A stretch of 41,499 nt of DNA from an uncultured Anaerolineales bacterium (lineage in GTDB: Bacteria > Chloroflexota > Anaerolineae > B4-G1 > DUEL01): assembly GCA_964580565.1 (NCBI GenBank), contig CAZOLN010000003.1:1-41499 (forward strand). Direction: 5' to 3'. Position numbers and translations under genes: made by a program. The notes below the pieces were generated by a model that was not told where the DNA came from, searched no databases, and worked only from the letters and a program-made list of their open reading frames with translations. Positions 1 through 36,667 of the stretch are shown here, in pieces; the first letter of the stretch is position 1; every line of letters begins with the position of its first letter.

Positions 1-284
1 CGCAGCACGGCGTCGCTGTTCAGGAGCAGGAAATACCGCCCCTGGGCCACCGCCATCGCCTGGTTGTTGGCCCGGGCGAACCCCACGTTCTCCCGGTTGA
101 CGATCAACCGGGCCTGGGGGAACCGCTCCCGCACCATCTCCGCGCTCCCGTCGGTGGAGCCGTTGTCCACCACGATGACCTCCACCGCCAGGTCCCCCGC
201 CGCCTCGTAGACGGACCTCAGGCACTGCTCCAGCAACGCCCGCGTGTTCCAACTAACCACGACGACCGAGACATCCACTCTCAT
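1..284 (-). CDS. Glycosyltransferase family 2, N-terminal part (gene runs off the left edge)
   Basis: My own reverse translation from ATG at 284 gives MRVDVSVVVVSWNTRALLEQCLRSVYEAAGDLAVEVIVVDNGSTDGSAEMVRERFPQARLIVNRENVGFARANNQAM..LLLNSDAVL, a typical GT-A/GT2 N-terminus. It is absent from the ORF track because it is truncated. ATGA overlap with the upstream stop at 281-283. Confidence 0.8.
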   Translation of the reverse strand, partial: MRVDVSVVVVSWNTRALLEQCLRSVYEAAGDLAVEVIVVDNGSTDGSAEMVRERFPQARLIVNRENVGFARANNQAMAVAQGRYFLLLNSDAVL

Positions 285-1732
285 CCCCCACTTCCCTGCT
301 TCCTTGCTTCCTCGCTTCCTTGCTTCCCTGCTTCCCCACTCCCCTCTCTCCTACTTCCCTGCTCCCTCAAGAACAACGCCTGGGCCGCCCCCAGCAGCGC
401 CCAGGTATAGACGGCGTAGTCGAACCCGGCGATGGTCTGGGTGTAGACGAAGGGGACGATCCAATCCCCCAGCGCCATCGCCACCAGCGCGCCCACGTAT
501 CCACCGACCGCGGCCAGCCCGAACGCCTCGGCGAAGTCCTGCCGCCCCTTCACCCGCCGGTACAGCCGCCAGAGGACCACGCCCGTCGCCGCCCAGAACC
601 ACAGGAAGAAGAAAAGACCCACCACGCCTGTCTGGGAGAGGACGTCGATGTAGGTGCTGTGGGAGGCCATCGCCTCCAGCGGGAAGTAATTCATGTAGTA
701 GACCGCGTAGCCCGCCGGTCCAACGCCGAAGAGCCAGTGCTCCCCCGTCACCCGCCAGTTGTGAAGCCAGGCGTCGACCCGCGTCACGCCGCTGGCGACC
801 ATCTCCTGCTGCAATTTGGCCTCCACCGCGGGGAGGTTAAAAGCGACGTACAGAGTCACCGCCACGATCAGGAGGATCAGCACCTTGCGCGAGCGCAACA
901 CCCCGATCGCCGCCAGCCCGGCCATCGCCGGCACCCAGGAGGAGAGCCAGCGGAACTGGTGGACGAAGACCTGGTAGAACCACGCCCCGGCCAGGACCAC
1001 CAGCGCCAGGCGGAGCAGCAGGGGCAACCGACGATGGAAGAACCCCAGGGCGAGGGCTAGGCAGATGAACCAGGTCGGGAAGAGCGGCCGCACCTGGAGG
1101 AAGTCCAGGTAGGGCAGGCGCAGGTAGTACCTCAGGATGGCCGCCGTCCCGACGACCAGCAGCAGGCCGACCAGGACACGGACCCACCGGGTATCTTCCT
1201 GCTGGGCCGCCACGAGGAACACCCCCGGCAGCAGGACCATCACGGCCAGCCCACCCAACTGGACGAAGGGCCAGGTGGGCCAGGGCTGCACCAGAACGTC
1301 CCGGAAGGCGATGCTCCAGGGAAGCGAGATGATGGACACCGCGACGAAGCCCAGGAGGGGTACGTTGACCGGCGAGGGCTTGAGCCGGATCTTCCGATCG
1401 GCCAGCCACTGGCTCGCCACCCACCAGGCGACGACGCCCCCCGCCAGGACCAGGCTGATGGGGATGCGGCTTCGGGTGCCGGTGGGAAGCGTGTAGCGGA
1501 TAACGGCGGCGGCAGCGATCACGCCGACGATCCCGTGTTCGATGCGCGCCCGTCCGAGACCCAGCGCCCCTACCAGAGGGAGGAACACGAACGGCAACAG
1601 CAACCAGGGACGGGCCATCCGCACGGCGATCCAGCCTACCGCCACCCCAAACGCCAACACGCCGACGACCATCCCCGCTCGCAACAGCCAGAGCCAGAGG
1701 ACGGGAAAGCGCCGCTCAACTGATGTCAACAT
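281..1732 (-). CDS. Polytopic membrane protein with O-antigen ligase / Wzy_C-type domain (ligase, polymerase or O-oligosaccharyltransferase)
   Basis: Many hydrophobic helices. Signature WLHNWRVTGEHWLFGVGPAGY...ASHSTYIDVLSQTGVVGL. Start trimmed to ATG 1732 (MLTSVERRFPVLWLW), because the longer ORF overlaps the upstream GT gene. The last ~27 codons are encoded by the octamer array. Confidence 0.7.
   Translation of the reverse strand: MLTSVERRFPVLWLWLLRAGMVVGVLAFGVAVGWIAVRMARPWLLLPFVFLPLVGALGLGRARIEHGIVGVIAAAAVIRYTLPTGTRSRIPISLVLAGGVVAWWVASQWLADRKIRLKPSPVNVPLLGFVAVSIISLPWSIAFRDVLVQPWPTWPFVQLGGLAVMVLLPGVFLVAAQQEDTRWVRVLVGLLLVVGTAAILRYYLRLPYLDFLQVRPLFPTWFICLALALGFFHRRLPLLLRLALVVLAGAWFYQVFVHQFRWLSSWVPAMAGLAAIGVLRSRKVLILLIVAVTLYVAFNLPAVEAKLQQEMVASGVTRVDAWLHNWRVTGEHWLFGVGPAGYAVYYMNYFPLEAMASHSTYIDVLSQTGVVGLFFFLWFWAATGVVLWRLYRRVKGRQDFAEAFGLAAVGGYVGALVAMALGDWIVPFVYTQTIAGFDYAVYTWALLGAAQALFLREQGSRREGSGEAGKQGSEEARKQGSGG
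291..368 (-). repeat. Octamer tandem array, CARGGAAG on the gene strand (5 clean plus about 4 degenerate units)
   Basis: Plus strand reads cttccctg cttccttg cttcctcg cttccttg cttccctg cttcccca ctcccctc... The array ends 6 nt before ATG 284. Confidence 0.85.
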
Positions 1733-2939
1733 CGTTCCACTCCGCCACGACCTGTTCCAGAAACGCCTCGAACCGCCGCCCAATCTCCCGCCAGTCGTAC
1801 CGCTCCCGCACCAACCGACGCCCGTTCCGCGCCAACCGCTCACGCAGAGCGGGGTCCTCCAGCAGCCGGACCACCTGGGCGGCGAAGGCCTCCGGCTCGT
1901 CGGCGAGCAGGATGTCCTCCCCCGGCCGGACCTCCAAGCCCTCGGCTCCCTTCGTCGTGGCGACCACGGGCACGCCCAGCGCCATTGCCTCCAGCACCTT
2001 CAGCCGGGTTCCTCCGCCCGTCGTGATTGGAACTACGCAGACCTTGCTGCGGGCGATGCGGGGGCGGACGTCCTCCAGGTAGCCGGTGAGGATCACGTTG
2101 TCGGAAAGGGGGAGACGGGCCAGATCGACCCCCTCTGTCCGACCGGTGATGAAGAGACGCACCCCCGGCCGCCGGGCTACGATTCGGGGCATCACTCCTT
2201 CCAAAAAGAATTCCATCGCCAGCAGGTTGGCGCTGTAGGTCAGCGAGCCGGGGAAGACCAGGGTATCAGGCTCCACCGGGCCAAAGTCTCCGTCATATCG
2301 TGACGGGTCGACCCCGTTGGGGATCACCACCGTCCGGTGGACCTGAGGAGCGACCTGCTCCAACGTCTCCCGCTCCAGATCCGAGGCGACGGTGCACCCT
2401 GCCACCTCGGAGAGAAGCCAAGCCGCATATCGGCGCAACTTCCACCACGTGAGCCGATGCCTCAGGCGACCCCATACCGTCCGCTGCGCCTGCATCTTGT
2501 TGTGGATCATCCGCAGTTCCACATCCTCCACCACGTGGGGTACATCGGTCCGGCCTGCCACGTAGCGGGTAGTGGTGAAGGACGGGCCAATCTCAGAGGT
2601 CACCACTACATCGTACCTCCCCCGCCCCAGTGCTTCCCCTACGAGCGCGTCCATCTCCGGGCTATAGGTCTCCCGCACCGAGCGGGGGAGAGGAGAGAGC
2701 AACCCGATGAGACTCCCCACCCTCTGGGGATGGAACGCCCGTAGCGGGGCCGTCCCCAAGAGCAGGCAACGAGCACGCAGTGCGTCGCCGACGGGCGGGA
2801 CGTCCCGCCCGTCGCGGACGAAGGCCAGCAGGTCCACCTCGTTGCAGCGAGTCAACTCCCGCAGTAGGTAGTAGGTCCGCATCCGTGCCCCGTTGTCGGG
2901 CGGCAAGGGGTACCAGGCGGCGAGGAAGAGGATGCGCAT
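1716..2939 (-). CDS. Glycosyltransferase family 4 (GT-B fold)
   Basis: MRILFLAAWYPLPPDNGARMRTYYLLREL N-terminus. C-terminal GGTRLKVLEAMALGVPVVATTKGAEGL (E-x7-E type) motif. ATG 2939 is preceded by GGAGGTGA. Confidence 0.85.
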   Translation of the reverse strand: MRILFLAAWYPLPPDNGARMRTYYLLRELTRCNEVDLLAFVRDGRDVPPVGDALRARCLLLGTAPLRAFHPQRVGSLIGLLSPLPRSVRETYSPEMDALVGEALGRGRYDVVVTSEIGPSFTTTRYVAGRTDVPHVVEDVELRMIHNKMQAQRTVWGRLRHRLTWWKLRRYAAWLLSEVAGCTVASDLERETLEQVAPQVHRTVVIPNGVDPSRYDGDFGPVEPDTLVFPGSLTYSANLLAMEFFLEGVMPRIVARRPGVRLFITGRTEGVDLARLPLSDNVILTGYLEDVRPRIARSKVCVVPITTGGGTRLKVLEAMALGVPVVATTKGAEGLEVRPGEDILLADEPEAFAAQVVRLLEDPALRERLARNGRRLVRERYDWREIGRRFEAFLEQVVAEWNDVDIS

Positions 2940-3886: not shown

Positions 3887-6800
3887 TCCGCAGCACCAAC
3901 GGCAGGAACACCCGCCCTGCAGGCACCACGCGCAGCGTTACCCAGTCGCTGCGGGGAGGGTTCGAGCGGGTTGTGGCGACGATCGTCCACGTCCCGAACC
4001 ACTCCGCAGTGTAGACATTCCCATTCCACATCCCACCCGCTTCCTTGTCAATGGTGTACTTACACCAGGGAGTCCAGTCGCCGATGCTGTTGCCGTACAG
4101 GTCGAAGGCCTCCACCGTGGCCGTCACCACCTCCCCGCGACCGACCTCGTAACTGCTGAGGCGGAGTTCGATGTACCCCACCTTGGTTCCAGGCCGCACC
4201 TCGAACGGCTCGCACGCGGCGGAGATCGTCCCATCGGTGACAGTGAGGGTCTGCGTGCCCGCCGTCCCCATCATAAACGCTGTTCCCGTGAACGTGTGCT
4301 TTCCCCCGTCCGCCAGGGTGAACGTATAGGGAGAGTCAACCGTATAGGAGAGGGTGGCCTGCGGATCGGAGGTGAGGAAATAGACGCTGCCCTGGTAGTC
4401 GGTCTTGACGTTGTTGAACCGATCGTAGGCGGTCACCTGCGGCCCGAACGGAGAGAAATGATAGCCTGCGTAGACGACGGTGGGGCACCCCTTGATCCCG
4501 AAAGCGGCGAGCGGGCCGGGCCGGAGGGTCACCGTCACCCGATCCGAGACGCCCCCCGTCTCGGCCCGGACCACCGTCTCCCCCGCCGTCGTGTCGGCCA
4601 GGAGAGGCGCCGTGGCGACGCCGCCCGCGGTCAGCGCGACGTACGGAACGTACGGGAGGTGGGCCGAGCTCCCGCCGCCCACCACCGTGAACGTCACCGG
4701 AACCCGATCGGCGATCGGATCGCCCTGGCCGTCCCACAGCCGGGCCCGCAGGGTCGCGCTGGAAACCCCGTCGGCTACGATAGCGGGGGGATCGGCCTCC
4801 AGAGCCATCTGGGCTGGCGGTGGCGTCACACGGATAAGCCCCGTTGTGTCGGTCCCCAGGGTCGCATGGGTGATGATGACGTGGGCGGTGCCCGTGATGT
4901 GGCCGTGCAGCCGCGCCCAGGTCGCATCGGGGCCGGGGATCAGGTCGCTTGGCACGACGCCTCCGCTCACCGGGACCAAGGTCCAGGAGACCGGCTCCGT
5001 CTGGACGAAGTGGCCCACCTCGTCGCGGGCCACGGCGTACAGATCCGCATAGTAGCCCGAGGCCACCTCCAGCGTATCCACCTCGCCCCCCTCCCCGTCC
5101 GCCTGGCTTTCCACCGCCACGGAGGCGGGCGGTCCGACGCCGCAAACGAGGCCCGATCCCACGGGGTCGGCATCTCCGATGGCGACGCTGGCCCCGCTGA
5201 CGATCCCCTCTACCAAAGAGTCCGTGTCGGCGTCGAACCAGACCTGAAACTCGTTGGGCGTGGCGTACATCGCTCCGTTGGCTGCGCGGACCACCACGAA
5301 GAAGTACACCGTCTCACCGGGGTCCACCACCAGGCGGGCGTCGCCAGGATCGGGGGTGACGGTCCGGTATCCGTCGGCATCCAGCGTCAGGTCGGTCACG
5401 GTGACGACGGCCGTGTCGGCGATCGACCAGCGGCGGTTTCCGCCATCCCGATAGATCCACAGCGTGTCGACGACGTCGTTCGCCTGCGCGGAGGTCAACG
5501 GGGTCCCATCGGGGGCCGTAAACCGGAGACGCCACCAGATCGGGCGGACCCCCTCCTCGGTGGGCAGGCCGTTGTGGGTGAACGCGATGGCGAGCACGTC
5601 GTCCATCTGACCGTGCTGGATGGGCGGCGGGTCGGTCGGCATCGCCGCCTCCGCAACCCCACCGGAGACGTTGCGCCAGAGATCGACCTCGACCCCGTCC
5701 CAGTAATCGCTTCCCTCCACGACGTCGACATCGCCGTCCCGGTCGAAATCGGCCGCAGCCACGGTCCGCACGACCATCTGGCTGGGCGCGATGATGTGGT
5801 CGATCCAGTGGGTGTCGGTCAGGAAATCGCCGAAGGGCACGCCGGAGTTCTCGAACCACATCCGCCGCCAGCGGGTGATCCCGGGCATCACGTCGAGCCA
5901 GCCGTCCCTGTTGAAATCTTCCACGACCAGGGACTCCGCCGAGCCGCCCATCCACGGCGGCGAGGGGGGCGTCCCGTACCAGACCGCCGTGGGCTGCCAG
6001 GTCCAGTGAAACGTGGCCGGCTGTTCATCGAAAGGAGTGCCGTCGTTCTCCCAGACCTTCACCTGGTAGTCCGCCTCGACGTGGTCGGCGGAGACGATGT
6101 CCAGGTCGCCATCCCGATCTAAGTCGGCCAGGACCACGTCGTGGACCGCCGCGCCCCAGTAGCCGTGGTAGTGGCTGGGGTTCTCCTCCGGCCCCAGCGT
6201 CACCGTCGCCGGATCCCGCCCTACGATCGTGACGGTCCAAGCGCCGGCAAAGGGGTCGGTGGGGCTACGCAGGGCAAGCAGTTCATACACGTTTGGCCAC
6301 TCCGACCGAAGGACCGGCGAGATCGGAGTACCCACGGCGGGGGCGTGGTCCGTCCCGGCGACCACGTCGGCCCATCCGTCGCCGTCCAGGTCGCCCACCG
6401 CCACGGCGTTGACGCTGTACGTGAGGACAGCGGCGTCGGTGAAGGACCAGGGGCCGTCAAACGGCGTGCCGTCGTTCCGCCAGAGGGTCACTTTGTGGGC
6501 AGGGCTCGGGTCGGCCAGGTGCTCTCCGGATCCGGTGACCAGGTCGGGCCACCCATCCCGGTCCAGATCGTACACGGCGATGTCACCCACCGGTGCGCCC
6601 GGATCGCCGACGGTGTAACCTGTCCACGGTCCATCCGGCTCGGTGCCCTGGTTCTCCCAGATCCGCAGGAACGGCGGGTCCGTGTGGCCGCTGACGATCT
6701 CCAGATCGCCGTCCTGATCCAGGTCGGCCAGGGCGAGGCTCAGGACCGGTCCCGCCTCTGCCACCAGGTGTGCCGTCCACCCGGCCTCCATAGGCTGCCC

Positions 6801-8297
6801 GTCGCTCGTCCAGACCCGGATCTCGCCGATGCTATCGCCGCTGACCAGGTCGGGCCATCCGTCCCGATCCACGTCGCCGGAGACGAGCGCCCGCACATCG
6901 GCCACGCGGGAACCCACGGGGACCGACGGCTCTGCGAAGAGAGCGCCGCCGTGGATCAAGGTGTTCGGCCACCACGCCACCTCAGGCGCAGCGCCCGCGG
7001 CGACCAAGTCCGGGTCGCCGTCCCCGTCCAGATCGCACGCCACTGCGCGCCAGAGGGGGGCTGCGCTTCCACCCAGCACCACCCCGTCCCAGGCCTGGTC
7101 CAGCCCGCCGACGTTGCGCCAGGCACGGGCGCCCGGGGAGGCGCCTCCGCCCACAGCAGCCAGATCGGGCAGCCCGTCCTCGTCGAAATCGGAGGCGGCC
7201 AACCCGTATGCCGGCCCGCCGAGGCTGCCCAACACCTGGTAGGCAGGCGCGGAGCCACCGAAGGGCTGACCAGGGGCGAAGGGGGTGGCCCAACCCAGGA
7301 TCCGGCCCGCCGCGTCGCCCGCCGCAACATCGGGGAGGCCGTCCCGATCGAAGTCAGCCACCGCGAGGGAGAGGAGATCGTCCCCCGCGCCGCCCCACGT
7401 CTGGGAGAGGGTCCACGACCCGGCGAAGGGCGCGCCGGGGTTCTGCCACAGGCGCAGGTCCCCCGCGGCCGTCGCCAGCACGTCGAGCAGGCCGTCCTGG
7501 TTCAGGTCGGCCACGGCCACGGCGTGGATCGGCCCCCCACCCGTGCTCAACGCGGTCGGCAACCCCCAGTCGGCGGTGAACGGATCGCCGGGGCCCATCG
7601 GGTTGCGCCAGAGGTACACCACCCCGTCGCTCCCGGCGACCACCAGGTCGGGCGCGCCATCCCGATCCAGATCGGCCACCGTCCCCGCCGGGAAGGTCAA
7701 CGCCGTCGAAGCGGTCACCACCCCACCGGTCCCCCAGGCCCCGCCGAAGGGGCTGCCGGGGTTGCGCCACAGGCGGACCTCCCCGTCGCAGAAAGCGACC
7801 AGGTCGGGAAAGGTGTCCCGGTCCAGGTCCGCCGCCGCCAGCCCGTTCACCGCTCCCCCGCAGAGGCCGATCTCCACCGACGTCGAGAACGCCGTTCCTG
7901 CAGCCACCCGCACCGCCGATCCGGCCGCAAAAGCCAGGTCCAGGTCGGCATCGAGGTCCAGATCGGCCACATCCAGCCCGGCCGCGTCCCCACTCGGCGC
8001 GAAGAGGGGCGTCCTCCCACCGAAGGAGAGGGGGTTCCCCTCCACGGGAGGGGAGGCCTGCACGGTCCAGGAGGTGTTCAACAGGGCCAGCAGCGCTACC
8101 GTCAGGAGCGCGGCCCCCGCCACGGGCAGGAGGTAGGCCAACGAATTTCGAACGAACAAACGAACGGCGGCCCACACCGTCCCGGTACGCTGGTCGAGAT
8201 AAACGGAGCCCTGCCCGCCCTCCCGCTGGCGCAGTCCACGGGCCGGCGACCCGGCCTTCTTCCATTCGTTAATTCGTTCCCTCATTCGTTGTTCCAT
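3876..8297 (-). CDS. Giant (about 1473 aa) N-terminally anchored surface protein: FG-GAP/VCBS repeats plus C-terminal bacterial Ig-like (Big) domains
   Basis: TM segment LAYLLPVAGAALLTVALLALL. Well over ten repeats of the D(L/F)D(G/R)DG.(P/L)D(L/V)...W.N type. The C-terminal third has invasin-like Ig repeats (LEADPPAIVADGVSSATLRARLWDGQGDPI). Start trimmed to ATG 8297 (AAGGAG SD), since the ORF-track start 8540 overlaps the SGNH gene. Confidence 0.8.
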   Translation of the reverse strand: MEQRMRERINEWKKAGSPARGLRQREGGQGSVYLDQRTGTVWAAVRLFVRNSLAYLLPVAGAALLTVALLALLNTSWTVQASPPVEGNPLSFGGRTPLFAPSGDAAGLDVADLDLDADLDLAFAAGSAVRVAAGTAFSTSVEIGLCGGAVNGLAAADLDRDTFPDLVAFCDGEVRLWRNPGSPFGGAWGTGGVVTASTALTFPAGTVADLDRDGAPDLVVAGSDGVVYLWRNPMGPGDPFTADWGLPTALSTGGGPIHAVAVADLNQDGLLDVLATAAGDLRLWQNPGAPFAGSWTLSQTWGGAGDDLLSLAVADFDRDGLPDVAAGDAAGRILGWATPFAPGQPFGGSAPAYQVLGSLGGPAYGLAASDFDEDGLPDLAAVGGGASPGARAWRNVGGLDQAWDGVVLGGSAAPLWRAVACDLDGDGDPDLVAAGAAPEVAWWPNTLIHGGALFAEPSVPVGSRVADVRALVSGDVDRDGWPDLVSGDSIGEIRVWTSDGQPMEAGWTAHLVAEAGPVLSLALADLDQDGDLEIVSGHTDPPFLRIWENQGTEPDGPWTGYTVGDPGAPVGDIAVYDLDRDGWPDLVTGSGEHLADPSPAHKVTLWRNDGTPFDGPWSFTDAAVLTYSVNAVAVGDLDGDGWADVVAGTDHAPAVGTPISPVLRSEWPNVYELLALRSPTDPFAGAWTVTIVGRDPATVTLGPEENPSHYHGYWGAAVHDVVLADLDRDGDLDIVSADHVEADYQVKVWENDGTPFDEQPATFHWTWQPTAVWYGTPPSPPWMGGSAESLVVEDFNRDGWLDVMPGITRWRRMWFENSGVPFGDFLTDTHWIDHIIAPSQMVVRTVAAADFDRDGDVDVVEGSDYWDGVEVDLWRNVSGGVAEAAMPTDPPPIQHGQMDDVLAIAFTHNGLPTEEGVRPIWWRLRFTAPDGTPLTSAQANDVVDTLWIYRDGGNRRWSIADTAVVTVTDLTLDADGYRTVTPDPGDARLVVDPGETVYFFVVVRAANGAMYATPNEFQVWFDADTDSLVEGIVSGASVAIGDADPVGSGLVCGVGPPASVAVESQADGEGGEVDTLEVASGYYADLYAVARDEVGHFVQTEPVSWTLVPVSGGVVPSDLIPGPDATWARLHGHITGTAHVIITHATLGTDTTGLIRVTPPPAQMALEADPPAIVADGVSSATLRARLWDGQGDPIADRVPVTFTVVGGGSSAHLPYVPYVALTAGGVATAPLLADTTAGETVVRAETGGVSDRVTVTLRPGPLAAFGIKGCPTVVYAGYHFSPFGPQVTAYDRFNNVKTDYQGSVYFLTSDPQATLSYTVDSPYTFTLADGGKHTFTGTAFMMGTAGTQTLTVTDGTISAACEPFEVRPGTKVGYIELRLSSYEVGRGEVVTATVEAFDLYGNSIGDWTPWCKYTIDKEAGGMWNGNVYTAEWFGTWTIVATTRSNPPRSDWVTLRVVPAGRVFLPLVLRNGP

Positions 8298-8314
8298 TCC
8301 CTGCTCCTTGAACC

Positions 8315-9542: not shown

Positions 9543-10172
9543 CTACCTCTCCCACCGCACGACCGTCCCCGCCCTGCGGGCCGGGTTGCCGTAGACCAGC
9601 GAGTTGGGCGGGACATCCCGCCGCACCACCGACCCTGCGCCGATGATGGAATTGTCGCCGATGGTCACGCCCTTCATAATGATCGAGTAGGGGCCGATCC
9701 AGACGTCGTCCCCGATGGTGATCGGGGCCTCGACCTCCGCCTCCCCGGTCCTCTCCAGCCACATCTTGTGACCGATGGAATCGAAGATGCTGCAGTTCCA
9801 ACTGATCATGCACCGAGCGCCGATCTTGACCTCGGTGGCGCACATGATCACGTTGTTGGCCCCGATGATGGTCCGCGGCCCGATGGTCAGATGCCCTCCG
9901 CAGACGATCTTGCTCCCCATCGCCAGCCGGGCCCCCCGGCCGATCTCGATGCGCCCGCCCTTCCACTTCAGGATCTGGACCTTGCGCTCGATGATGAACG
10001 GCTCCCGGGAGTCGAATTTGTAGAAGCGCAGCATCCACCGCAGGACCCCCAGCGCCGCGATCACCTTGTCGCGGGGGGGCATATTGAGCCAGAACTTGCG
10101 CCAGAAGTGCGTGTACGGCAGCACGTCCGGCTCTGCGGGCTGTTCTGCTTCCAGAGTCATCGTTTGATCCAT
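9543..10172 (-). CDS. Hexapeptide-repeat (left-handed beta-helix) acetyltransferase
   Basis: IGRGARLAMGSKIVCGGHLTIGPRTIIGANNVIMC..ITIGDDVWIGPYSIIMKGVTIGDNSIIGAGSVV hexapeptide periodicity. GGGAGG SD lies before ATG 10172. Confidence 0.85.
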   Translation of the reverse strand: MDQTMTLEAEQPAEPDVLPYTHFWRKFWLNMPPRDKVIAALGVLRWMLRFYKFDSREPFIIERKVQILKWKGGRIEIGRGARLAMGSKIVCGGHLTIGPRTIIGANNVIMCATEVKIGARCMISWNCSIFDSIGHKMWLERTGEAEVEAPITIGDDVWIGPYSIIMKGVTIGDNSIIGAGSVVRRDVPPNSLVYGNPARRAGTVVRWER

Positions 10173-10190
10173 AAGAGAGTACCTCCCTAT

Positions 10191-10246
10191 GCGTCACACG
10201 TCATACGTCAGGCGTCATGCGTCATACGTCACGCGTCAGGCGTCAG
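10191..10246 (-). repeat. Heptamer tandem array x8, TGACGYR on the gene strand
   Basis: Plus strand reads gcgtcac acgtcat acgtcag gcgtcat gcgtcat acgtcac gcgtcag gcgtcag. Confidence 0.9.
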
Positions 10247-11426
10247 ATGCTACTGCGCCCAGGTGACGGAGCAGATCCTGCACCGCCCCCTCCCAGTCCC
10301 ACGCCTCGACGACCCACCGACGCCCCGCCTGGCCCATCATCCGGGCGCGTTCTGGACACTCCAGCAGATCGCCGATCGCCTCGGCCAGGGCGCGGGGGTC
10401 GCGAGGGACCCGCAGGCCGGTCCGGCCGTGCAGGACCGTCTCCCGCACGCCCCCCTCGTCCACCCCCACCACCGGCGTCGCGCAGGCCATCGCCTCCAGC
10501 GGCACCAGCCCCAGCGGCTCCCGGTGAGGGGTGTAGGCGACCAGGGCAGCGCGGTTGTAGGCCGCCACCAGTTCCCCGTCCTCCACGCCGACCCGAATCC
10601 CCAGGTCCACTCCCCGATCCGCCGCCAGCCCCTCCAGGTACGCCCGTTCCTGCGGCTCGGCGTAGTTGCAGATGAGGCGCAACGGCGGGCGGACGGCCTC
10701 GGGCAGCCGGGCCAGCCCCTCGACCAGCAGGTCGAACCCCTTGTAGGGGGTCAGCGCGCCCACGGAGAGGACGAAGCCGTCCCGCGCCAGCCCCAGCGGG
10801 CGGAACCGATCTGCGTCGATCCCGTGGCGGCAGACGTGGGCCTCCACCCCGTAGATGCGGCGGACGTTGGCCTGGGTGTAGGCGGAGTTGACCAGCACAC
10901 GGGTCGCAGCACGGGTCGCCTCCCGGTCGATCCGCCGCAGAAGGGTGCGGTAGAACCGCAGCGCCGGATCCAGCCGATCCACCACGCCCCGCAGCGGGGA
11001 ACCGTGGAGATAGGGCCGGGGGACCGACGGCTCGTACAGGCGGCGCAGCGGTTCGTGGCAGTAATAGACCGAAGGGGTGCGCAGGTATCGCAACAGCGGC
11101 GGAGCCTGGCTGAACTGGCAAGGATGGACCAACGCCACGTCGAACCCCTCGGCGTCGATCGCGTGGGCCATCCGCCGGTTGACCCGCACCAGCCGGACCA
11201 GGTCGGCCGCCCGCGCAGCCCGGTTGAGCCGGCCAAAGGGGCGGCGCAGTTCCGGTCCAGGGCGAAACGGGAAGGCCCGAACCGGCACCCCGTCCACCTC
11301 CACCGGCGTCGCTGTGGTGAGGGTGAAGAGGGTGAGGTCGTGCCGGGCGGAGAGCCGCCGCACCTGCTCGGAGAGGGTGCGCAGCGCGCCGCCGGAGTGG
11401 AGGTTGTGATAGACCGCGATCCGCAC
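10236..11426 (-). CDS. Glycosyltransferase family 4
   Basis: RIAVYHNLHSGGA N-terminus. PHREPLGLVPLEAMACATPVVGVDEGGVRETV motif. GTG 11426 lies 6 nt after GGGAGG. The stop falls inside the heptamer array. Confidence 0.8.
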   Translation of the reverse strand: MRIAVYHNLHSGGALRTLSEQVRRLSARHDLTLFTLTTATPVEVDGVPVRAFPFRPGPELRRPFGRLNRAARAADLVRLVRVNRRMAHAIDAEGFDVALVHPCQFSQAPPLLRYLRTPSVYYCHEPLRRLYEPSVPRPYLHGSPLRGVVDRLDPALRFYRTLLRRIDREATRAATRVLVNSAYTQANVRRIYGVEAHVCRHGIDADRFRPLGLARDGFVLSVGALTPYKGFDLLVEGLARLPEAVRPPLRLICNYAEPQERAYLEGLAADRGVDLGIRVGVEDGELVAAYNRAALVAYTPHREPLGLVPLEAMACATPVVGVDEGGVRETVLHGRTGLRVPRDPRALAEAIGDLLECPERARMMGQAGRRWVVEAWDWEGAVQDLLRHLGAVASDA

Positions 11427-11428
11427 CG

Positions 11429-12526
11429 TCACCCTCCCGCCACGTTCTGCCAATGGGGCGCCAGGCTTCTGTCCGGATGGCGCGGAGTGAGCCTGCGCCG
11501 CAAGCCGACCAGCAGCCGCAGGGGGATCCCCTGCCAGCGGGTGGACGCCAGAGCCAGGCGATACTTCCGCCGGGGCGACAACGCCAGGGCCTGGGCCAGC
11601 CACCGTCGCCCCCGCTCCAGGTCCCGATGCCGGGCCACCGTCTCCACGCCCAGCCGGTACAACAACATCGCCCGATCCTCTGGCGGCAACCCCTGGAACC
11701 GGTCCGACGCCACCACCGCCGCCTGGGTCTCCGGGTCGCCATCGAAGAAGATGAGCAGCAACTGGCGGAGGAACTCGCGCCGGGTCCAGAGCGGCAGCGA
11801 GGGAAAGAAATCGGCCTCCAGGACCTTCCGCTTGAACCGCTGCACCGACCGCCAGCGGCGTGCCCAGTGAGGATGGGAGCGGGAGGAGGCGTTCTCCCCG
11901 TGGAGTCGGTACGCACAGACCGGCTCGCTGTGGGCAGCGAAGCGAGCCCCCGCCGCCGCCAACCGCAACCAGAGGTCGGCGTCCTCCGTGCCCCGCAGCC
12001 GTTCGTCGAACCAGGGATCGCCGAGCAGGCCCAGCGCCCGCCGTCGCACCATCGCCGAGTGGGTCGCCACGACCACGTTGTGCAGGACCATCACCGCCAG
12101 CAGCCCTTCCTCCGGAATCGAGGGGCGCTCCTCCGCGATCCGCTGCAGCCGCCGCCCCTCCGCGTCGCAGTAATACCCGTCGCCGTAGACCACATCCACC
12201 TCCGGGTGGCGGTCCAAGAAACCGGCCTGCACCTCCAGCGCCTCGGGGAGAAGCCAGTCGTCCGAGTCCAGGAAGACCAGGTACTCCCCCCGCGAGAGCC
12301 GGACCCCCCGGTTGCGGGCCACCGCCCGGCCCTGGTTCTCCTGGTAAAAGTAGCGGATCCGGTCTCCGTACCGCGCCCGCAACACGTCGCCGGTCCCGTC
12401 GGTGGATCCGTCGTCCACCACCACGATCTCGAAGGAGGGATACGCCTGCGCCAGCACGCTGTCGATGGCCTCACAGACCATCGAGGCCCGGTTGTAGGTG
12501 GGGATGATGACGCTAACCTTAGGCAC
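11429..12526 (-). CDS. Glycosyltransferase family 2 with about 130-aa C-terminal extension
   Basis: PKVSVIIPTYNRASMVCEAIDSVLAQ..VVVDDGSTDGT..LDSDDW motifs. GTG start at 12526 is preceded by GAAGGAG. Confidence 0.85.
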   Translation of the reverse strand: MPKVSVIIPTYNRASMVCEAIDSVLAQAYPSFEIVVVDDGSTDGTGDVLRARYGDRIRYFYQENQGRAVARNRGVRLSRGEYLVFLDSDDWLLPEALEVQAGFLDRHPEVDVVYGDGYYCDAEGRRLQRIAEERPSIPEEGLLAVMVLHNVVVATHSAMVRRRALGLLGDPWFDERLRGTEDADLWLRLAAAGARFAAHSEPVCAYRLHGENASSRSHPHWARRWRSVQRFKRKVLEADFFPSLPLWTRREFLRQLLLIFFDGDPETQAAVVASDRFQGLPPEDRAMLLYRLGVETVARHRDLERGRRWLAQALALSPRRKYRLALASTRWQGIPLRLLVGLRRRLTPRHPDRSLAPHWQNVAGG

Positions 12527-13760
12527 CGACTCGCTCCTTCAGATGGGAATGAAGAACCGACCACATCTCCTCGGCACGGCGCGTCCAGGTGTTCTCCTGG
12601 GCGTAGCGCAGCCGCCGCTCCCGCAGGTCCGGCGGCTCCTGCAGAGCCTCCTCCAACGCGGCGAGGAACCCCTCCGGCCCCTCCCCCACGTGGACCACGT
12701 CGGCGAACCGCTCGACCCCCGCCACCGGCGTGCTGACGATGGGCCTCCCCGTCGCCAGGTAGTCGTACAACTTGATGGGGTCCATGCTTCGAGTGAGGGA
12801 GGTGACGGCGTGGGGAAGGATGCAGACGTCGAAACCCCGGAAATAGGCGGGCAGATCGTGAAAATCTCGCCGCCCCAAAAAGCGAACGTTGGACCGCTGG
12901 GCCAGCGCCGCCACCTGATGGCGGTGGTTGTCCCACACGTTGCCCACAAAGACGAAGGACCAGGTGGGACGGGCATCAGCGAGCGCTTCCAGCAGCCCGT
13001 AGTCGATCTTGTCGGCGATCTGGCCGACGTAGCCGACGACGGGACGGGGGAGGTCCACCAGTTCCGGCGCGACGGGGCCGGGCTCGGCCGCCCTCCCCAC
13101 CACCGTCAGGTCGGTCGCGTTGGGGGCCCGACGGGCGTTACCGTTCACCCGTCGGGCGCGGCGATGGAGGGTCTCCGAGACGGCGAAGACCACATCCGCC
13201 TCCCGGAGCAACCGGTCGTTGAGCCGGACCAACTCCTCCCGGTCCGCCACCGGCAGCACCTCGAAGGCGGCCCAGTCGTCGGTCCAGTCGTAGCAGCAGA
13301 GGACCCGCTCCGGAAATGTGTCCAGCGCCCAGGCCTGGAGGGGGTGGGAGAGCCAGAGGATCACCGGCCCCGGCCCCAGCCGCCGCAGCGCGGCGCGGAT
13401 CCGGCCGACGTAGAGGGCACGGTTGACCCGCTGGAGCGCCTTCCACCGCCGGACCCCCTCCAGGCGGGTGAGGGGCAGGCTTTTCTCGGAGCCGGTAAGG
13501 GTCCACACCCTGCCGTCGACGCGGAGGGGGCGGCCCAGAAGGGCGTCCAGGTGGGCGCGGCGGGTGGGCGGCAGGTGGCCCGGACCGAAGCGACCCCGCG
13601 CCAGGTCCAGGATGCTGGTCGCCACCGGGGGCTCGACGTACAGGACGCCCGCGACCTCGGGCCGCTGTGCGAACTCCCAGGCCAGGCGGGTTTTCCGACG
13701 GCCCAGGTTCCCCCACTCATATCCCGAGAAATACAGAAGGCGATACCGCTTAGGGGACAT
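12519..13760 (-). CDS. GT-B fold glycosyltransferase (GT4/TuaH-like)
   Basis: VVGYVGQIADKIDYGLL..VRFLGRRDFHDLPAYFRGFDVCILPH..IKLYDYLATGRPIVSTPVAG. Start trimmed to ATG 13760 (MSPKRYRLLYFSG), an 11-nt overlap with the upstream stop. Confidence 0.7.
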   Translation of the reverse strand: MSPKRYRLLYFSGYEWGNLGRRKTRLAWEFAQRPEVAGVLYVEPPVATSILDLARGRFGPGHLPPTRRAHLDALLGRPLRVDGRVWTLTGSEKSLPLTRLEGVRRWKALQRVNRALYVGRIRAALRRLGPGPVILWLSHPLQAWALDTFPERVLCCYDWTDDWAAFEVLPVADREELVRLNDRLLREADVVFAVSETLHRRARRVNGNARRAPNATDLTVVGRAAEPGPVAPELVDLPRPVVGYVGQIADKIDYGLLEALADARPTWSFVFVGNVWDNHRHQVAALAQRSNVRFLGRRDFHDLPAYFRGFDVCILPHAVTSLTRSMDPIKLYDYLATGRPIVSTPVAGVERFADVVHVGEGPEGFLAALEEALQEPPDLRERRLRYAQENTWTRRAEEMWSVLHSHLKERVGA

Positions 13761-20176: not shown

Positions 20177-21417
20177 GCAGCCTCTGCTCCCTCGCTCCTT
20201 TGCTCCCTTGCTCCCTGCACCCTCCATCGATGCGGCAGGTACACCAACGCTCCCCCCTGATCGAACCGGGAGCCCACCACGAAGTGGACCGCTCCGTCGA
20301 TCTGGTCATAGGTGAGCGGAGAAAAATGGTCCCGCTTGATGCCGACGTTGACGTTGTACTCCCCGTTGAGGAGGTTCAGGCTCTCGTAGATGACCTCGGC
20401 GACCCCCTCATCCCCCGGCTCGAAGTGGCCGTGGATGTCGAACCGGGCCGTCGTGGTACCGTGGAGGATGCGGTATCCCTGACGGATGCGGGAGTAGAAG
20501 ACGGGGTCGTCCACCGGCGCGTTGGCGCGGAAGTGGATGCGCAGCCTCATCGGCTCCGCCGTCAGGAAGGAGTTGCGCGGCTCCCCCTCCCCGTCGAGCA
20601 GTTCCACCCGCGTGATCTCCATCTCCCGACCGCCCCCTCCTCGCCTATCCACCTCCCGCCGCAGCGCCTCGCCAGCGAAGCCGGTGTGGTAGAGATCCAA
20701 CGCCTCCTGGGTCTCCCCCAGGAACATCACCTTGCCCTTGTAGAGGAACAGGGTCCGATCGCACAACTTCTGGATCATCTCCTTGTTGTGAGAGACCACC
20801 ACCATCGTCTTGCCGGCATCCCGGAACTCCTGGATCCGCCGGACGCACTTATCGCGGAACATGTAATCCCCAACGGCCAGCACCTCGTCGATGAGCAGCA
20901 CGTCCGGATCCACGTGGACCGCCACGGCGAAGCCCAGTCGGACGAACATCCCGGAGGAGTACCGCTTGACCGGCATGTCGATGAACTCCTCCAGTTCGGA
21001 GAAGGCGACGATGCTGTCGAACTTCTCGTCGATCTCCCGCCGCTTCAGCCCCAGGATGGCGCCGTTGAGGTAGATGTTCTCCCGCCCGCTCAGGTCGGGA
21101 TGGAAGCCCGCGCCCAACTCGATGAGGGCGGAGACCCTGCCGCGCACCGTGATCCGCCCGCTGGTGGGGCGGGTGACCCGGGAGAGGAGTTTCAGGACGG
21201 TCGTCTTCCCCGCCCCGTTGGGGCCGATGATGCCCAGCACCTCCCCCTTCTTGACCTCAAAACTCACCCCGTCCAGCGCCCAGAGCAGGTCCCCCCGATC
21301 CTTCCCATCCCGCCCGACCACCTTGCCCAGCAGGTTCGGCAGCGCGTCCCGCAGGCTCCCCCGTCCGAACCGACGGCGGTAGGCCTTTCGCACGTTCTCA
21401 AACTCGATCGCGGCCAT
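20173..21417 (-). CDS. wzt: Polysaccharide-export ABC transporter ATP-binding protein with C-terminal Wzt_C-type carbohydrate-binding domain
   Basis: Walker A GPNGAGKTT, signature YSSGMFVRL, Walker B LLIDEVLAVGD. About 150-aa beta-rich C-terminal domain (ITRVELLDGEGEPRNSF...LNGEYNVNVGI). Start trimmed to ATG 21417 (MAAIEFENV). Confidence 0.9.
   Translation of the reverse strand: MAAIEFENVRKAYRRRFGRGSLRDALPNLLGKVVGRDGKDRGDLLWALDGVSFEVKKGEVLGIIGPNGAGKTTVLKLLSRVTRPTSGRITVRGRVSALIELGAGFHPDLSGRENIYLNGAILGLKRREIDEKFDSIVAFSELEEFIDMPVKRYSSGMFVRLGFAVAVHVDPDVLLIDEVLAVGDYMFRDKCVRRIQEFRDAGKTMVVVSHNKEMIQKLCDRTLFLYKGKVMFLGETQEALDLYHTGFAGEALRREVDRRGGGGREMEITRVELLDGEGEPRNSFLTAEPMRLRIHFRANAPVDDPVFYSRIRQGYRILHGTTTARFDIHGHFEPGDEGVAEVIYESLNLLNGEYNVNVGIKRDHFSPLTYDQIDGAVHFVVGSRFDQGGALVYLPHRWRVQGAREQRSEGAEAA
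20186..20225 (-). repeat. Octamer tandem array x5, RAGGGAGC on the gene strand
   Basis: Plus strand reads gctccctc gctccttt gctccctt gctccctg caccctcc. Lies directly upstream of ATG 20176. Confidence 0.8.
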
Positions 21418-24848: not shown

Positions 24849-24885
24849 CCCCCCTCCTCATTCCTTAAACGTCTGCGTAATTCTT

Positions 24886-24894
24886 AAAATACCA
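24886..24894 (-). promoter_or_regulatory. Possible extended -10 (TGGTATTTT) for the response-regulator-led glycan operon
   Basis: Lies in the only AT-rich stretch between the upstream terminator and ATG 24848. No convincing -35 box. Confidence 0.25.
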
Positions 24895-24925
24895 GAACGT
24901 CGTATGGGTTAGGTGAAAGAAAGGT

Positions 24926-27870: not shown

Positions 27871-27947
27871 GTGTCATGCGTCAAACGTCATGCGTCATAC
27901 GTCACACGTCAAGCGTCAGACGTCAAACGTCAGGCGTCAGGCGTCAA
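27871..27947 (-). repeat. Heptamer tandem array x11, same TGACGYR family
   Basis: Plus strand reads gtgtcat gcgtcaa acgtcat gcgtcat acgtcac acgtcaa gcgtcag acgtcaa acgtcag gcgtcag gcgtcaa. Confidence 0.9.
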
Positions 27948-29036
27948 AGCGAGGCGGGTGACGAGCGGCAGGTACAGCGCAGCACCCCCGGCGAGGGGGA
28001 TCCGCTCCACAAGGGTGTACGGTCCGCCCGCCCCGTCGTCCCGATAGGTCTCCAGCACAACGAAGTCGTCCTCAACCCGGATAACGAGAAAGGTGCTGGG
28101 GGCTCCTCGATCCCCCTTTCCACGGGCGTGCCCGGCGTCCAGTTGCCAGACCCCGTCGATGCGCACCGCGCTGTAGTTGTGCGTGTGCCCGCAGATGTAG
28201 GCCACCACGCCGTGGGCCGCCAGGAGGTCCCAAAACCGATCTCGGTTCGCCGGATGAGCGTCGAGGCTGTCGCCGACGTGTCGCTCCCGCCCCGTCTCCG
28301 CGTCCGGCTGCGGGAAGGCCGGCTCGTGGCCGAAGACGAAGATGTAGGGCCGGTCGGTCGCCTGCAGGTCCGCCGCCAACCACTCGTAGAGGTGGTCGGG
28401 AAGGTCCCCATCGGTCGCCATCGGCCCGCCGACGTCGCAGTAGACGTTGAGCATCACCAGGTGGGCAGCGCCGTAGTCGAACGAGTAGGTCGTCGTCGGG
28501 CAGCCGGAGGGGCCGGGGTTCACCGGGCCGTAGTCGTACGCCTGGAGCCAGGCCACGTCGTCGGGGGTCTCCACCTCGTGGTTGCCGACGCCGGGATACC
28601 ACGGGAAGTCGGCCCCAAGGGTCTGGGAGAGGGTCCACTGCACCCCCAGCGGCGGATCGACGTCGCCGGGGCTGACCATGAAGGCCACGTCGCCCAGGGC
28701 GGCGATGGCCTCGCACGCCCCGCGGAAGTAGTGGACGGAGTCGTAGAGGCCCGGCCCTGCGTACTGCCGCATATCGGCAGCGACGGCGAAGGCGAAGGAG
28801 GAAGAGGGGGAGAGAGGGGAGAGAGGAGACAAGGGGACAGGGGGAGAAGGAGGAACCGTGGGAGAGGATACGGCAGGAGGACGAGCTGTAGGGGCGAGGG
28901 TGGGAGAGGCGGTGGGAGAGGTGATAGGGGGAGCAGCAGGAACGGCAGCGCAGGCAACCCCGAGCAAGAGGAGCGACAGCAAGATCGACGACGGGGTCAG
29001 GCCGAGCACCCTCCCCAACCGGTGGAGTCCCTTCAC
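27930..29036 (-). CDS. Secreted or anchored calcineurin-like metallophosphoesterase
   Basis: Signal/anchor ILLSLLLLGVACAAV and a Pro/Ser-rich linker, then SPGDVD, GVGNHE, VFGHEP, ICGHTHN motifs. GTG 29036 follows GGAGGAGG. The stop lies inside the heptamer array. Confidence 0.8.
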   Translation of the reverse strand: MKGLHRLGRVLGLTPSSILLSLLLLGVACAAVPAAPPITSPTASPTLAPTARPPAVSSPTVPPSPPVPLSPLSPLSPSSSFAFAVAADMRQYAGPGLYDSVHYFRGACEAIAALGDVAFMVSPGDVDPPLGVQWTLSQTLGADFPWYPGVGNHEVETPDDVAWLQAYDYGPVNPGPSGCPTTTYSFDYGAAHLVMLNVYCDVGGPMATDGDLPDHLYEWLAADLQATDRPYIFVFGHEPAFPQPDAETGRERHVGDSLDAHPANRDRFWDLLAAHGVVAYICGHTHNYSAVRIDGVWQLDAGHARGKGDRGAPSTFLVIRVEDDFVVLETYRDDGAGGPYTLVERIPLAGGAALYLPLVTRLALTPDA

Positions 29037-30507: not shown

Positions 30508-30549
30508 GGCAGGTTACAGGTTACAGGCTACAAGTTACAGGTCTCAGGT
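30508..30549 (-). repeat. Heptamer tandem array x5-6, CCTGTAA family on the gene strand
   Basis: Minus strand reads ACCTGAG ACCTGTA ACTTGTA GCCTGTA ACCTGTA ACCTGCC. Confidence 0.85.
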
Positions 30550-31470
30550 CGCGGGTTGGTGGTTCCACAAGCGGCAGAAAGCGCAAGGGCCGGGGACACT
30601 GGTGGGCTGGCCGCAGACGGGGCATGGATGGAGTTCAACCTGCTCCGATTGCTCCTTGAACAGCCCGTCCTTCCGGGCACGGAGGAAACTGAGGTAGAAC
30701 TGCAACTTGCTGCCCGGCGACTGGACCTCCAACCGACTGAGCAGGTCTTTATAGAAGATCGTGGTGCTTCCCTCCGCGTAGGGGCATTCCTCGTAGATGT
30801 AGTCGATCCCCCGGAGGAGGGCGTAGGCGGCCACCTCCCGCTCGTAGAAGCGGCAGAAGGGCTTGACCTTGCGGGCCAGCCCTTCCCGCTCCTCCAGCAC
30901 GGGGGCCTGCCGGGCCAGGTAGCCCACCTGCCAGTGGAGGACGTTGCTCAGAAGGACAGCGACCTCATCGTCCAGGTTATGGCCGGTGGCCAGCACGCCA
31001 TATCCGTGCTCCCAGGCGATGCGGTTCATCTCGTGTCGCTTGATGAGCCCACAGACGGAGCAGGGCTTGCCCCGCCCCCGCAGTTTTCGGCGCGCCACCT
31101 GGGGGATCGTCTCCCCGTACAGGGCGGGGACATCGACCACGTGCAACTGGGCCTCGGGGTGCTGCGCTACAAAGGCTTCAACCTTCTGGAAGGAGAGCCG
31201 GGAATAGCCAAACCCGCCGTCGATCCCCAGGTCGATGTACAGCCCGTCGGCTTGGTAGCCCAGGCGAAGGAGCACGTCCCAGAGGCTGAGGCTGTCCTTC
31301 CCTCCGGAGACGGCGACCAGCACCCGGTCTTCGCGGCGAAACATTCGGTACTTCCGGATCGCCCGCTCCGTCTGCGCGACGAACCACTCCAGGTAATGCT
31401 CCTCGCAGAGCGCCAGTTTGTGATGCCGCATGTTGAACGCGGCCCGCTTCCCGCACTTTCGACAGCGCAC
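30544..31470 (-). CDS. ttuA: TtuA/Ncs6-family tRNA 2-thiolation PP-loop ATPase
   Basis: N-terminal zinc finger CRKC..CEEH, PP-loop VAVSGGKDS, CSVCG and C-terminal CPVCG..CAFC clusters. The specific tRNA target is inferred from the family only. Confidence 0.8.
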   Translation of the reverse strand: MRCRKCGKRAAFNMRHHKLALCEEHYLEWFVAQTERAIRKYRMFRREDRVLVAVSGGKDSLSLWDVLLRLGYQADGLYIDLGIDGGFGYSRLSFQKVEAFVAQHPEAQLHVVDVPALYGETIPQVARRKLRGRGKPCSVCGLIKRHEMNRIAWEHGYGVLATGHNLDDEVAVLLSNVLHWQVGYLARQAPVLEEREGLARKVKPFCRFYEREVAAYALLRGIDYIYEECPYAEGSTTIFYKDLLSRLEVQSPGSKLQFYLSFLRARKDGLFKEQSEQVELHPCPVCGQPTSVPGPCAFCRLWNHQPAT

Positions 31471-36613: not shown

Positions 36614-36655
36614 CAGTTGCCGGTTGCTCGTTGCCCGTTGCTGGTTGCCGGTTGG
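36614..36655. repeat. Heptamer tandem array x6, NNGTTGC (plus strand), between convergent genes
   Basis: cagttgc cggttgc tcgttgc ccgttgc tggttgc cggttgg. Confidence 0.85.
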
Positions 36656-36667
36656 CGGCCGAGGCGG

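Follow-up and report, generated by a model that had tools for sequence, protein, structure and literature searches.

In many bacteria, heptanucleotide repeats are the over-represented class of long simple-sequence repeats (long SSRs; Mrazek et al. 2007, quoted in PMC4692102 and PMC4679880), and polymerase slippage has been proposed to explain their excess (same two papers). The GGGAATC and GGGGAYT repeats of Xanthomonas and Nostoc are about 90% intergenic and closer to the upstream ORF's 3' end; they occur equally on both strands, are sometimes inverted and vary between close relatives (PMC4692102). The TAACTGA repeats of marine Beggiatoaceae, cyanobacteria and Bacteroidetes place stop codons in three frames and overlap the ends of upstream ORFs (MacGregor 2015, PMC4679880); MacGregor proposed a post-transcriptional regulator for them. 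In Calothrix, three heptanucleotide STRR families are known (cited in PMC4692102). Phase-variable 7-bp repeats also occur upstream of a gene, as with (ATCTTTC)n in the hmw1A 5'-UTR of H. influenzae (PMC12721329), and phase-variable heptanucleotide repeats are reported for neuO of E. coli K1 (PMC13001214).

We analysed a stretch of 41,499 nt (hereafter the window; G+C 67%) from an uncultured Anaerolineales bacterium. Its minus strand carries, from 10245 to 10190, eight contiguous TGACG-Y-N units arranged head to tail with no spacers between them (array 1: TGACGCC, TGACGCG, TGACGTA, TGACGCA, TGACGCC, TGACGTA, TGACGTG and TGACGCA), for which Tandem Repeats Finder gave a period of 7 and 8.1 copies. 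The first-pass annotation had placed the array at 10191-10246; the eight units are real, and the true span, 10190-10245, is one base off from that. Upstream lies a GT4 glycosyltransferase of 396 aa (10236..11426, minus strand; Pfam GT4/Glycos_transf_1), read from a GTG at 11426 (VRIAVYH...) within a longest ORF of 10236..11603. Units 1 and 2 of the array encode the last two codons of this gene (GAC GCC) and its TGA stop (10236-10238). Thus, as the annotation had proposed, the upstream ORF ends at the first in-frame unit, which is the second of the array. Two further proposals were also borne out: relative to the GT4 frame, the TGAs of the eight units fall in frames 2, 0, 1, 2, 0, 1, 2 and 0, and the complementary strand holds no stop codon.

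On its other side, array 1 abuts a Shine-Dalgarno sequence and ends 17 nt before the ATG (10172) of a co-directional hexapeptide-repeat acetyltransferase of 209 aa (9543..10172, minus strand; Pfam Hexapep). The intervening sequence, TAGGGAGGTACTCTCTT (10173..10189, minus strand), contains the Shine-Dalgarno-like GGGAGG (10182-10187) and the spacer before the ATG, and it is conserved also in relatives that lack the expanded array. The distance from the GT4 stop to the ATG is 63 nt in the window versus about 21-27 nt in relatives. These genes lie in a glycosyltransferase/Wzy cluster, with the acetyltransferase and an AlgX-like SGNH protein downstream of the array. The closest homologues of GT4 and of Era, encoded elsewhere in the window, come from hot-spring and hydrothermal metagenomes, and those with a name are assigned to Anaerolineales, Thermoflexales, Thermoflexia or Chloroflexi.

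Array 1 is close to the Xanthomonas and Nostoc long SSRs. Like these, TGACGNN repeats are head-to-tail 7-nt units, intergenic in about 90% of cases, adjacent to 3' ends, found in both orientations and in some inverted pairs, variable in length and sequence between close relatives, and accompanied by an excess of period 7. The tandem arrangement, the intergenic or 3'-adjacent position, the presence of several arrays with a period-7 excess and the change by 7-nt steps between relatives are all found here. Unlike the Xanthomonas and Nostoc repeats, the TGACGYN unit does not form G-quadruplexes, and the host belongs to a thermophilic Chloroflexota lineage.

The TAACTGA repeats are another close parallel. 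Both they and array 1 have forward stops in three frames, overlap the end of the upstream ORF by up to about two units, precede the following start codon by a short distance and show no predicted RNA structure. The stop-codon arrangement, presented in the first-pass annotation as unrecognised, had therefore already been described for TAACTGA (PMC4679880). However, in Beggiatoa the TAACTGA repeats have 2-6 copies, are strongly forward-biased and often replace the Shine-Dalgarno sequence, whereas array 1 is followed by a strong GGGAGG; the units also differ, TAACTGA versus TGACGYN, and TGACGNN at large has no orientation bias. With the STRR elements of heterocystous cyanobacteria our arrays share the presence of a few recurrent heptamer families (TGACGYN; GCAACYR/GGTTGCY) in dispersed non-coding tandem arrays, and the annotation's description of a period-7, STRR-like array at a gene junction holds in that sense. 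Array 1 is not an STRR in the strict sense, as its unit is TGACGYN, which we take to differ from the canonical STRR units, and its host is not a cyanobacterium. Our literature search found no report linking heptamer repeats to Chloroflexi or Thermoflexus. The class is known; to our knowledge, neither this lineage nor the TGACGYN unit has been described for it.

Array 1 is not alone in the window, a point that the first-pass annotation missed. In a scan by period, the window gave four period-7 and two period-8 arrays, and periods 5, 9, 10 and 11 were not represented. The second TGACG array (array 2; 27872..27948, minus strand; repeat scan and Pfam) lies between a metallophosphoesterase gene and era and has 11 units, ten with the TGACG core and one with TGACA. 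The stop of the metallophosphoesterase (27930-27932) is the third unit of this array, and the era ATG lies 16 nt past its end, again with the array abutting a Shine-Dalgarno sequence. Note that the same TGACG core occurs at two unrelated junctions within 41 kb. The pattern TGACGNNTGACG has 16 matches in the window, nine of them in array 2 and all on the minus strand, versus 0.15 expected; none of 100 shuffles reached 16. Over the two arrays, 18 of the 19 units keep the TGACG core, and most base changes fall at positions 6 (C/T) and 7 (any base) of the unit. By our own estimate, which counts minimum mutation events and allows for unit duplication, this pattern is weakly non-random (p~0.03) and only suggestive.

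Array 3 (30508..30556, minus strand) follows a TtuA-like gene and consists of CAACCCG, CGACCTG, AGACCTG, TAACTTG, TAGCCTG, TAACCTG and TAACCTG, that is, of units that drift around TAACCTG; the stop of the TtuA-like gene (30544-30546) is the TGA of one of its units. Array 4 (36616..36658), six copies of GTTGC-Y-N between the convergent tmk and a Zn-ribbon gene, has stop codons on neither strand; read on the opposite strand, it belongs to the CAACCAG/CAGCAAC family of relatives. In L268, a GGTTGCT array follows the Wzy gene. The presence of GTTGCYN in the window and of CAACCAG in relatives therefore means that this array family occurs in both orientations. The sequence of array 4 at 36616-36658 is identical in three samples, so the arrays are not equally unstable. 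The two period-8 arrays are Shine-Dalgarno-like. One, about six copies of CARGGAAG (286..340, minus strand), is translated as the tail of the ORF 281..1843 and runs up to an ATGA in which this ORF's stop overlaps the start of the following one; the other, four copies of NAGGGAGC (20185..20217, minus strand), immediately precedes another such ATGA overlap, at about 20173-20176. With a second TGACGYN array, two heptamer arrays of other units and a pair of octamer arrays in the same window, the suggestion that the placement of array 1 at a junction marks a special device lost its ground.

The history of the GT4 junction was read from relatives, graded by the identity of their GT4 to that of the window, whose contigs were compared at the junction. 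At 67% identity (L269) the spacer measures 370 nt and there is no array. At 80% (L268) the junction reads TGACGTG AGACGCT, followed by AGGAGG, and at 86% (L003 and L004) it reads CGACGTA TGACATA, or a TGATGTA variant, in a 21-nt spacer. Nine units are present at 88% (L135), four of them with mutated cores (TAACG, TGGCG, TGACA and TCACG), and in another contig of the same clade (L002, 88%) the contig end falls inside the array. At 99-100% identity, L001 and L132 have eight units, as in the window, and L133 has seven, one of them substituted, while the acetyltransferase is identical in the window and in all three. The same-species contigs compared were 4-14 kb long. A metagenome scan with 20-mer anchors gave 11 loci, and the orthologous junction was found only in L135, the others being chance matches. 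The comparison of unit numbers at orthologous junctions, which the first-pass annotation had recommended, thus gave 8, 7, 9, about 2 and 0 units.

These series suggest that the ancestral GT4 junction had a proto-repeat of two units, with the TGA stop inside it, which was expanded in one clade. Between strains the array changes in steps of a whole unit, and point mutations erode it. A different outcome is seen at 82% identity (L005), in which seven GAACRYA units hold no in-frame stop and are translated as the tail ...RTQNTERRTQNAERET of the GT4 homologue P0004. The GT4 homologues (P0001-P0011) have 392-415 aa, and their C-terminal tails past the conserved ...HL motif vary in length and sequence; GT4 can therefore tolerate having its last two codons within the array.

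Similar turnover was observed at two other junctions. The era array of L126 is identical to that of the window; that of L127 differs from it despite a 100% identical Era protein, and the contig L127 begins inside this array. The array is absent in a 94% relative (L128), and an 86% relative (L130) has 2-3 units (CGACGTT TGACGTT TCACATT), with the TGA of the first full unit serving as the stop of the upstream gene. At the junction between the TtuA-like gene and Vut_1, all relatives examined have a heptamer array, but its unit drifts: it is CAACCAG in L130, CAGCAAC in L128, AAACCTG in L129 and TAACCTG in the window. The arrays of L130 and L128 are translated and extend into the start of the following gene. 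Therefore, stop content is not conserved even where the array is.

The idea, raised in the first-pass annotation, of a slippage-prone spacer fits this record: seven versus eight units are found between identical flanking proteins, relatives have nine, about two or none, and the contigs L002 and L127 break inside such arrays.

We extended the analysis to one genome per GTDB species, in which a search for four or more consecutive TGACGNN units returned at least 120 loci. The matches listed include Verrucomicrobiota, Planctomycetota, Acidobacteriota, Bacteroidota, Nitrospirota, Streptomyces, cyanobacteria and about 20 Chloroflexota. Most of the genome arrays listed are perfect (TGACGAA, TGACGGC and so on), and among these same matches, arrays with variable last two bases are typical of Anaerolineae/Thermoflexales. 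Genes at the scanned loci were taken from a self-training ORF caller, which matched the stops and strands of the gene tables of L003, L128 and L130, and the viral-contig loci listed served as an independent replicate of the orientation test.

Between co-directional genes, the matches listed hold 32 genome and 28 viral arrays in the sense orientation versus 28 genome and 22 viral in the antisense orientation. A further 26 genome and 8 viral arrays among them lie between convergent genes, and 7 genome and 32 viral arrays between divergent genes. Inside predicted ORFs, the matches listed contain no sense array, genome or viral, and 11 genome and 14 viral antisense arrays; the 11 come from about 125 genome arrays. 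Thus, among the matches listed in genomes and viral contigs, TGACGNN has no orientation bias at co-directional junctions (60 sense versus 50 antisense). The first-pass annotation had named equal occurrence in both orientations as the observation that would count against its own stop-codon logic, and this is what the count gave. Chloroflexota alone have 8 sense and 6 antisense arrays among the matches listed. Moreover, the two window TGACG arrays are forward and end 16-17 nt before an ATG, whereas among the matches listed the two orientations are about equally frequent. In Anaerolineae/Thermoflexales most arrays variable at positions 6 and 7 have the sense orientation, with a start codon 5-41 nt further on, although the numbers are small and gene strand is confounded with replication strand. 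Inverted partner arrays, which would form a long hairpin, were present in four other metagenome-assembled genomes (MAGs; L027, L052, L073 and L092).

The TGACGNN loci also carry other repeats. Among the matches listed, 112 of these other arrays are of period 7, versus 25, 25, 13 and 7 of periods 5, 6, 8 and 9, so genomes with TGACGNN arrays have a specifically heptameric repeat habit. Thermophilic Chloroflexota and the widespread TGACGNN unit are now added to the long-standing puzzle of favoured 7-nt bacterial repeats. Stop-bearing units make up 62% of the 112 other heptamer arrays, versus 39% in a null of random intergenic 7-mers from the same loci; at co-directional junctions, the stop-bearing ones are 15 sense-only and 20 antisense-only.

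Among the matches listed, sense-adjacent TGACGNN arrays supply the stop of the upstream ORF in 21 of about 67 genome cases and 12 of 41 viral cases. This third or so fits seeding of arrays at or beside stop codons, and it fits equally the trivial rule that a stop-bearing sense array can exist only at or after the end of an ORF.

Taken together, the best explanation is that array 1 is a heptanucleotide simple-sequence repeat of the long-SSR, STRR-like type that arose by slipped-strand expansion of a two-unit proto-repeat overlapping the GT4 TGA, and that its stops in all frames are a by-product; we give this reading a probability of about 0.7. The founder would have been a two-unit proto-repeat that already overlapped the GT4 stop. 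Slipped-strand expansion would then have multiplied the stop-containing unit in the intercistronic spacer of a polysaccharide operon of a Thermoflexales/Anaerolineae (Chloroflexota) host. TGA falls in all frames because the founder unit held a stop and 7 is not a multiple of 3. The effects would be passive: the array supplies the end of the GT4 gene (two codons and the stop), the gain or loss of 7 nt leaves the GT4 and acetyltransferase proteins unaltered, and the stop-to-ATG spacer is lengthened from about 21-27 nt to 63 nt with the strong GGGAGG kept. The anatomy of the array, the proto-repeat in relatives, the turnover in copy number and sequence, the existence of several arrays and the absence of an orientation bias are observed directly; slippage as the mechanism and near-neutrality of its products are what we infer. 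The octamer arrays at other junctions, being Shine-Dalgarno-like, fit seeding by whatever signal occupies a short spacer.

Three observations go against pure slippage: the variation at positions 6 and 7, the recurrence of TGACG and the sense-leaning arrays of the closest lineage; yet L135 shows that cores decay. Given that TGACG recurs at unrelated junctions and that GAC GTN TGA ends three different genes in relatives, the choice of unit is non-random.

No functional signature was detected that would favour another reading. A scan of the whole window at the Rfam gathering thresholds returned no family. The RNA of both junctions is neither more nor less structured than shuffled sequences (z of -1.56 and +0.19), and we accordingly dropped the ideas that the array acts as a terminator, as a processing hairpin or as a deliberately unstructured standby site. 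The window TGACG arrays have no inverted partner, since all 16 TGACGNNTGACG matches lie on one strand; with the folding scores above, this ruled out a REP-like or terminator hairpin formed by inverted arrays. Around array 1, neither a sigma-70-like promoter nor an intrinsic terminator was found on the gene strand, and array 1 therefore lies most simply within a polycistronic transcript.

The first alternative is that the TGACG cores with two free bases form a putative mRNA or DNA binding platform for a multimeric or cooperative factor that, bound beside the Shine-Dalgarno sequence, tunes downstream translation; candidates may be S1, Csp or CsrA-like proteins, or, by analogy, a TRAP/HutP-like ring protein. 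In its favour, arrays 1 and 2 have an invariant five-base core with variation confined to two positions, and they end 16-17 nt before the ATG against the Shine-Dalgarno sequence. In addition, most TGACGYY-type arrays in MAGs of other Anaerolineae/Thermoflexales have the sense orientation and a start 5-41 nt away, and there are precedents in the post-transcriptional proposal for TAACTGA (PMC4679880) and in the regulatory effects, speculative themselves, of Nostoc heptamer repeats (bioRxiv 10.1101/2022.06.06.494920). However, although array 1 has the core-plus-two-variable-bases pattern of TRAP/HutP-type arrays, it is unconserved in orthologues: about two units remain in the 80% and 86% relatives by GT4, the era array is absent in the 94% relative, the 82% relative has another unit (GAACRYA) at its GT4 junction and the cores of the 88% relative (L135) have decayed. 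Moreover, other arrays of the same genome have unrelated cores, and the 110 co-directional cases among the matches listed have no orientation bias; the cross-genome sample was chosen by intact cores and so says nothing on their conservation. We therefore regard a binding platform as improbable. Nor did any of our results support the phased protein-binding array that the first-pass annotation had listed among the possible roles. The position bias, the recurrence of TGACG and the preference for period 7 leave a small but appreciable chance that some factor recognises the core.

A broader and more speculative version, for which we see only a slim chance, is that TGACG-core arrays form a dispersed family of cis-elements in Thermoflexales/Anaerolineae, and possibly far beyond, whose five-base core, at 7-nt spacing, would be read by a factor on mRNA shortly before ribosome-binding sites. 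If this were true, drift in copy number would be a genome-wide heritable dial on the translation of downstream cistrons. More broadly still, the cross-phylum preference for period 7 and for a few unit families may reflect a dedicated mechanism, other than generic polymerase slippage, that generates or maintains arrays.

A further alternative is that array 1 is a contingency locus of the phase or rheostat type, in which copy number would act on the length of the spacer or on mRNA processing, and through these on the O-acetylation of surface polysaccharide. The genes are suggestive, with an acetyltransferase and an AlgX-like SGNH protein downstream within a glycosyltransferase/Wzy cluster, and there is natural copy-number polymorphism (7, 8 and 9 units). 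As in hmw1A (PMC12721329) and neuO (PMC13001214), which provide the precedents, 7-nt units vary in copy number in a population beside a gene for a surface structure or an acetyltransferase. Unlike these, array 1 has no repeat hairpin, no promoter context and no frame switch within an ORF, and similar arrays lie at housekeeping junctions, before era and between tmk and the Zn-ribbon gene; array 4, moreover, is invariant across three samples. Array 1 thus lies in none of the placements typical of contingency SSRs, that is, in a promoter, a structured 5'-UTR or an ORF, and its repeats are part of neither promoter nor hairpin. Translational phase variation of the neuO type was ruled out, as the sense strand of array 1 has stops in every frame and is untranslatable. 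We consider a contingency locus quite unlikely.

Weakest of all, and very unlikely in our opinion, is a selected frame-independent translation stop before the Shine-Dalgarno sequence, which would give clean re-initiation of the downstream gene: TGA in all three frames with a stop-free opposite strand, sense-strand stops in all three window heptamer arrays between co-directional genes, upstream stops supplied by about a third of the sense-adjacent TGACGNN arrays listed and the enrichment of stop-containing heptamer units (62% versus 39%) speak for it. But one in-frame stop suffices, the matches listed are divided equally between sense and antisense placement, and stop-free arrays, translated as C-terminal tails or entering an overlapping start, are tolerated in relatives; seeding at stop codons, together with the survival of stop-bearing sense arrays only outside ORFs (PMC4679880), accounts for the enrichment. 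Since relatives manage with one TGA and a 21-27 nt spacer, a stop in all frames is not needed. The stop-codon logic of the first-pass annotation, as a selected and orientation-dependent device, did not hold up against the genome and viral counts, against the 15 sense-only and 20 antisense-only cases among the other stop-bearing heptamer arrays or against the translated arrays at the GT4 junction of L005 and at the TtuA-like to Vut_1 junction. The all-frame stop is neither conserved nor orientation-selected at large, and it is most likely a by-product and not a device.

Arrays of this kind have practical consequences. They supply stop codons and short C-terminal tails (-DA, -DV) that call for caution in annotation, they create spurious antisense ORFs and they break metagenome contigs. 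As they differ between otherwise identical strains, they are possible strain markers for hot-spring and hydrothermal Chloroflexota. The GT4 junction, moreover, provides a clean natural series (0, 2, 7, 8 and 9 units) in which slippage and regulatory ideas can be compared.

The genome loci recovered by the scan for four consecutive TGACGNN units, one genome per GTDB species (L006-L125), had been selected solely because each carries one TGACGNN array. Among the matches listed, these same loci contained 112 additional period-7 arrays made of other units, and the arrays of periods 5, 6, 8 and 9 numbered 25, 25, 13 and 7, respectively. This heptamer habit was found, among the matches listed, in Verrucomicrobiota, Planctomycetota, Acidobacteriota, Bacteroidota, Chloroflexota and cyanobacteria. 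Individual 'viral' contigs, 40-50 kb long, held four to six TGACGNN arrays each, at separate sites and with both strands represented, as seen in IMGVR_UViG_3300028920_000094 (loci L216, L217 and L219) and IMGVR_UViG_3300027730_000053 (loci L173, L198 and L223). On viral contigs, the arrays occurred more often in divergent than in convergent intergenic regions (32 and 8 among the matches listed), the reverse of the bacterial genomes (7 divergent and 26 convergent, again among the matches listed).

In relatives, GAC GTN TGA (-Asp-Val-stop) is the shared 3' end of three different genes, GT4, Vut_1 and a metallophosphoesterase gene (L003 at about 11050-11062, L129 at about 1460-1472 and L130 at about 9973-9990). 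This ending equals 1.5 TGACGTN units, and it suggests that many gene ends carry contracted or nascent arrays. Heptamer arrays can also lack in-frame stops, as occurs in L005 (3890-3946, protein P0004, the GT4 homologue), L128 (8197-8258) and L130 (8197-8240). These arrays encode repetitive C-terminal tails, for example ...RTQNTERRTQNAERET, and are also able to enter the start codon of the next gene directly.

Paired arrays occur in other Anaerolineae/Thermoflexales MAGs, where no more than a few bases separate a CGTCA-type array from the TGACG-type array after it (L027 6805-6859, L073 about 735-793, L052 about 7190-7267 and L092 4356-4417). The pairs would form near-perfect hairpins of about 18-26 bp built of heptamer units, sited after a stop codon and before the next Shine-Dalgarno sequence, without a T-run. 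They may be REP-like intercistronic stem-loops.

Octamer tandem arrays were present in the window at 286-340 (-) and 20185-20217 (-), and in L005 at 5814-5884 (+). Their units, CARGGAAG, NAGGGAGC and TGGGGGAC, are G/A-rich and Shine-Dalgarno-like, and the start of the next gene lies directly 3' of each array. In the window, both arrays encode the C-terminal tail of the ORF that precedes them and reach an ATGA stop/start overlap. The octamer arrays look like expansions seeded by a ribosome-binding site. In L005, an octamer array fills the spacer orthologous to the start region of the window's large FG-GAP/Big_1 protein gene. Near that start (8240-8310 (-) and 8003-8056), the window carries loose repeats of GGAACGAAT-like motifs, several in-frame ATGs among them, and a 25-nt two-copy repeat.

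The stop-free antisense strand of TGACGNN-type arrays can seed spurious ORF calls. A 152-aa plus-strand ORF (window 10217-10675 (+)) starts at an ATG within the GT4-acetyltransferase array (ATGCGTCAGG...). Finally, the contig L126, whose Era is 100% identical to that of the window and whose arrays are identical too, carries a DDE_Tnp_1 transposase (12440-13522) on the downstream side of the response regulator; different genes occupy this place in the window (about 24100-24990). On the two sequences compared, this difference is a strain-level insertion or rearrangement.
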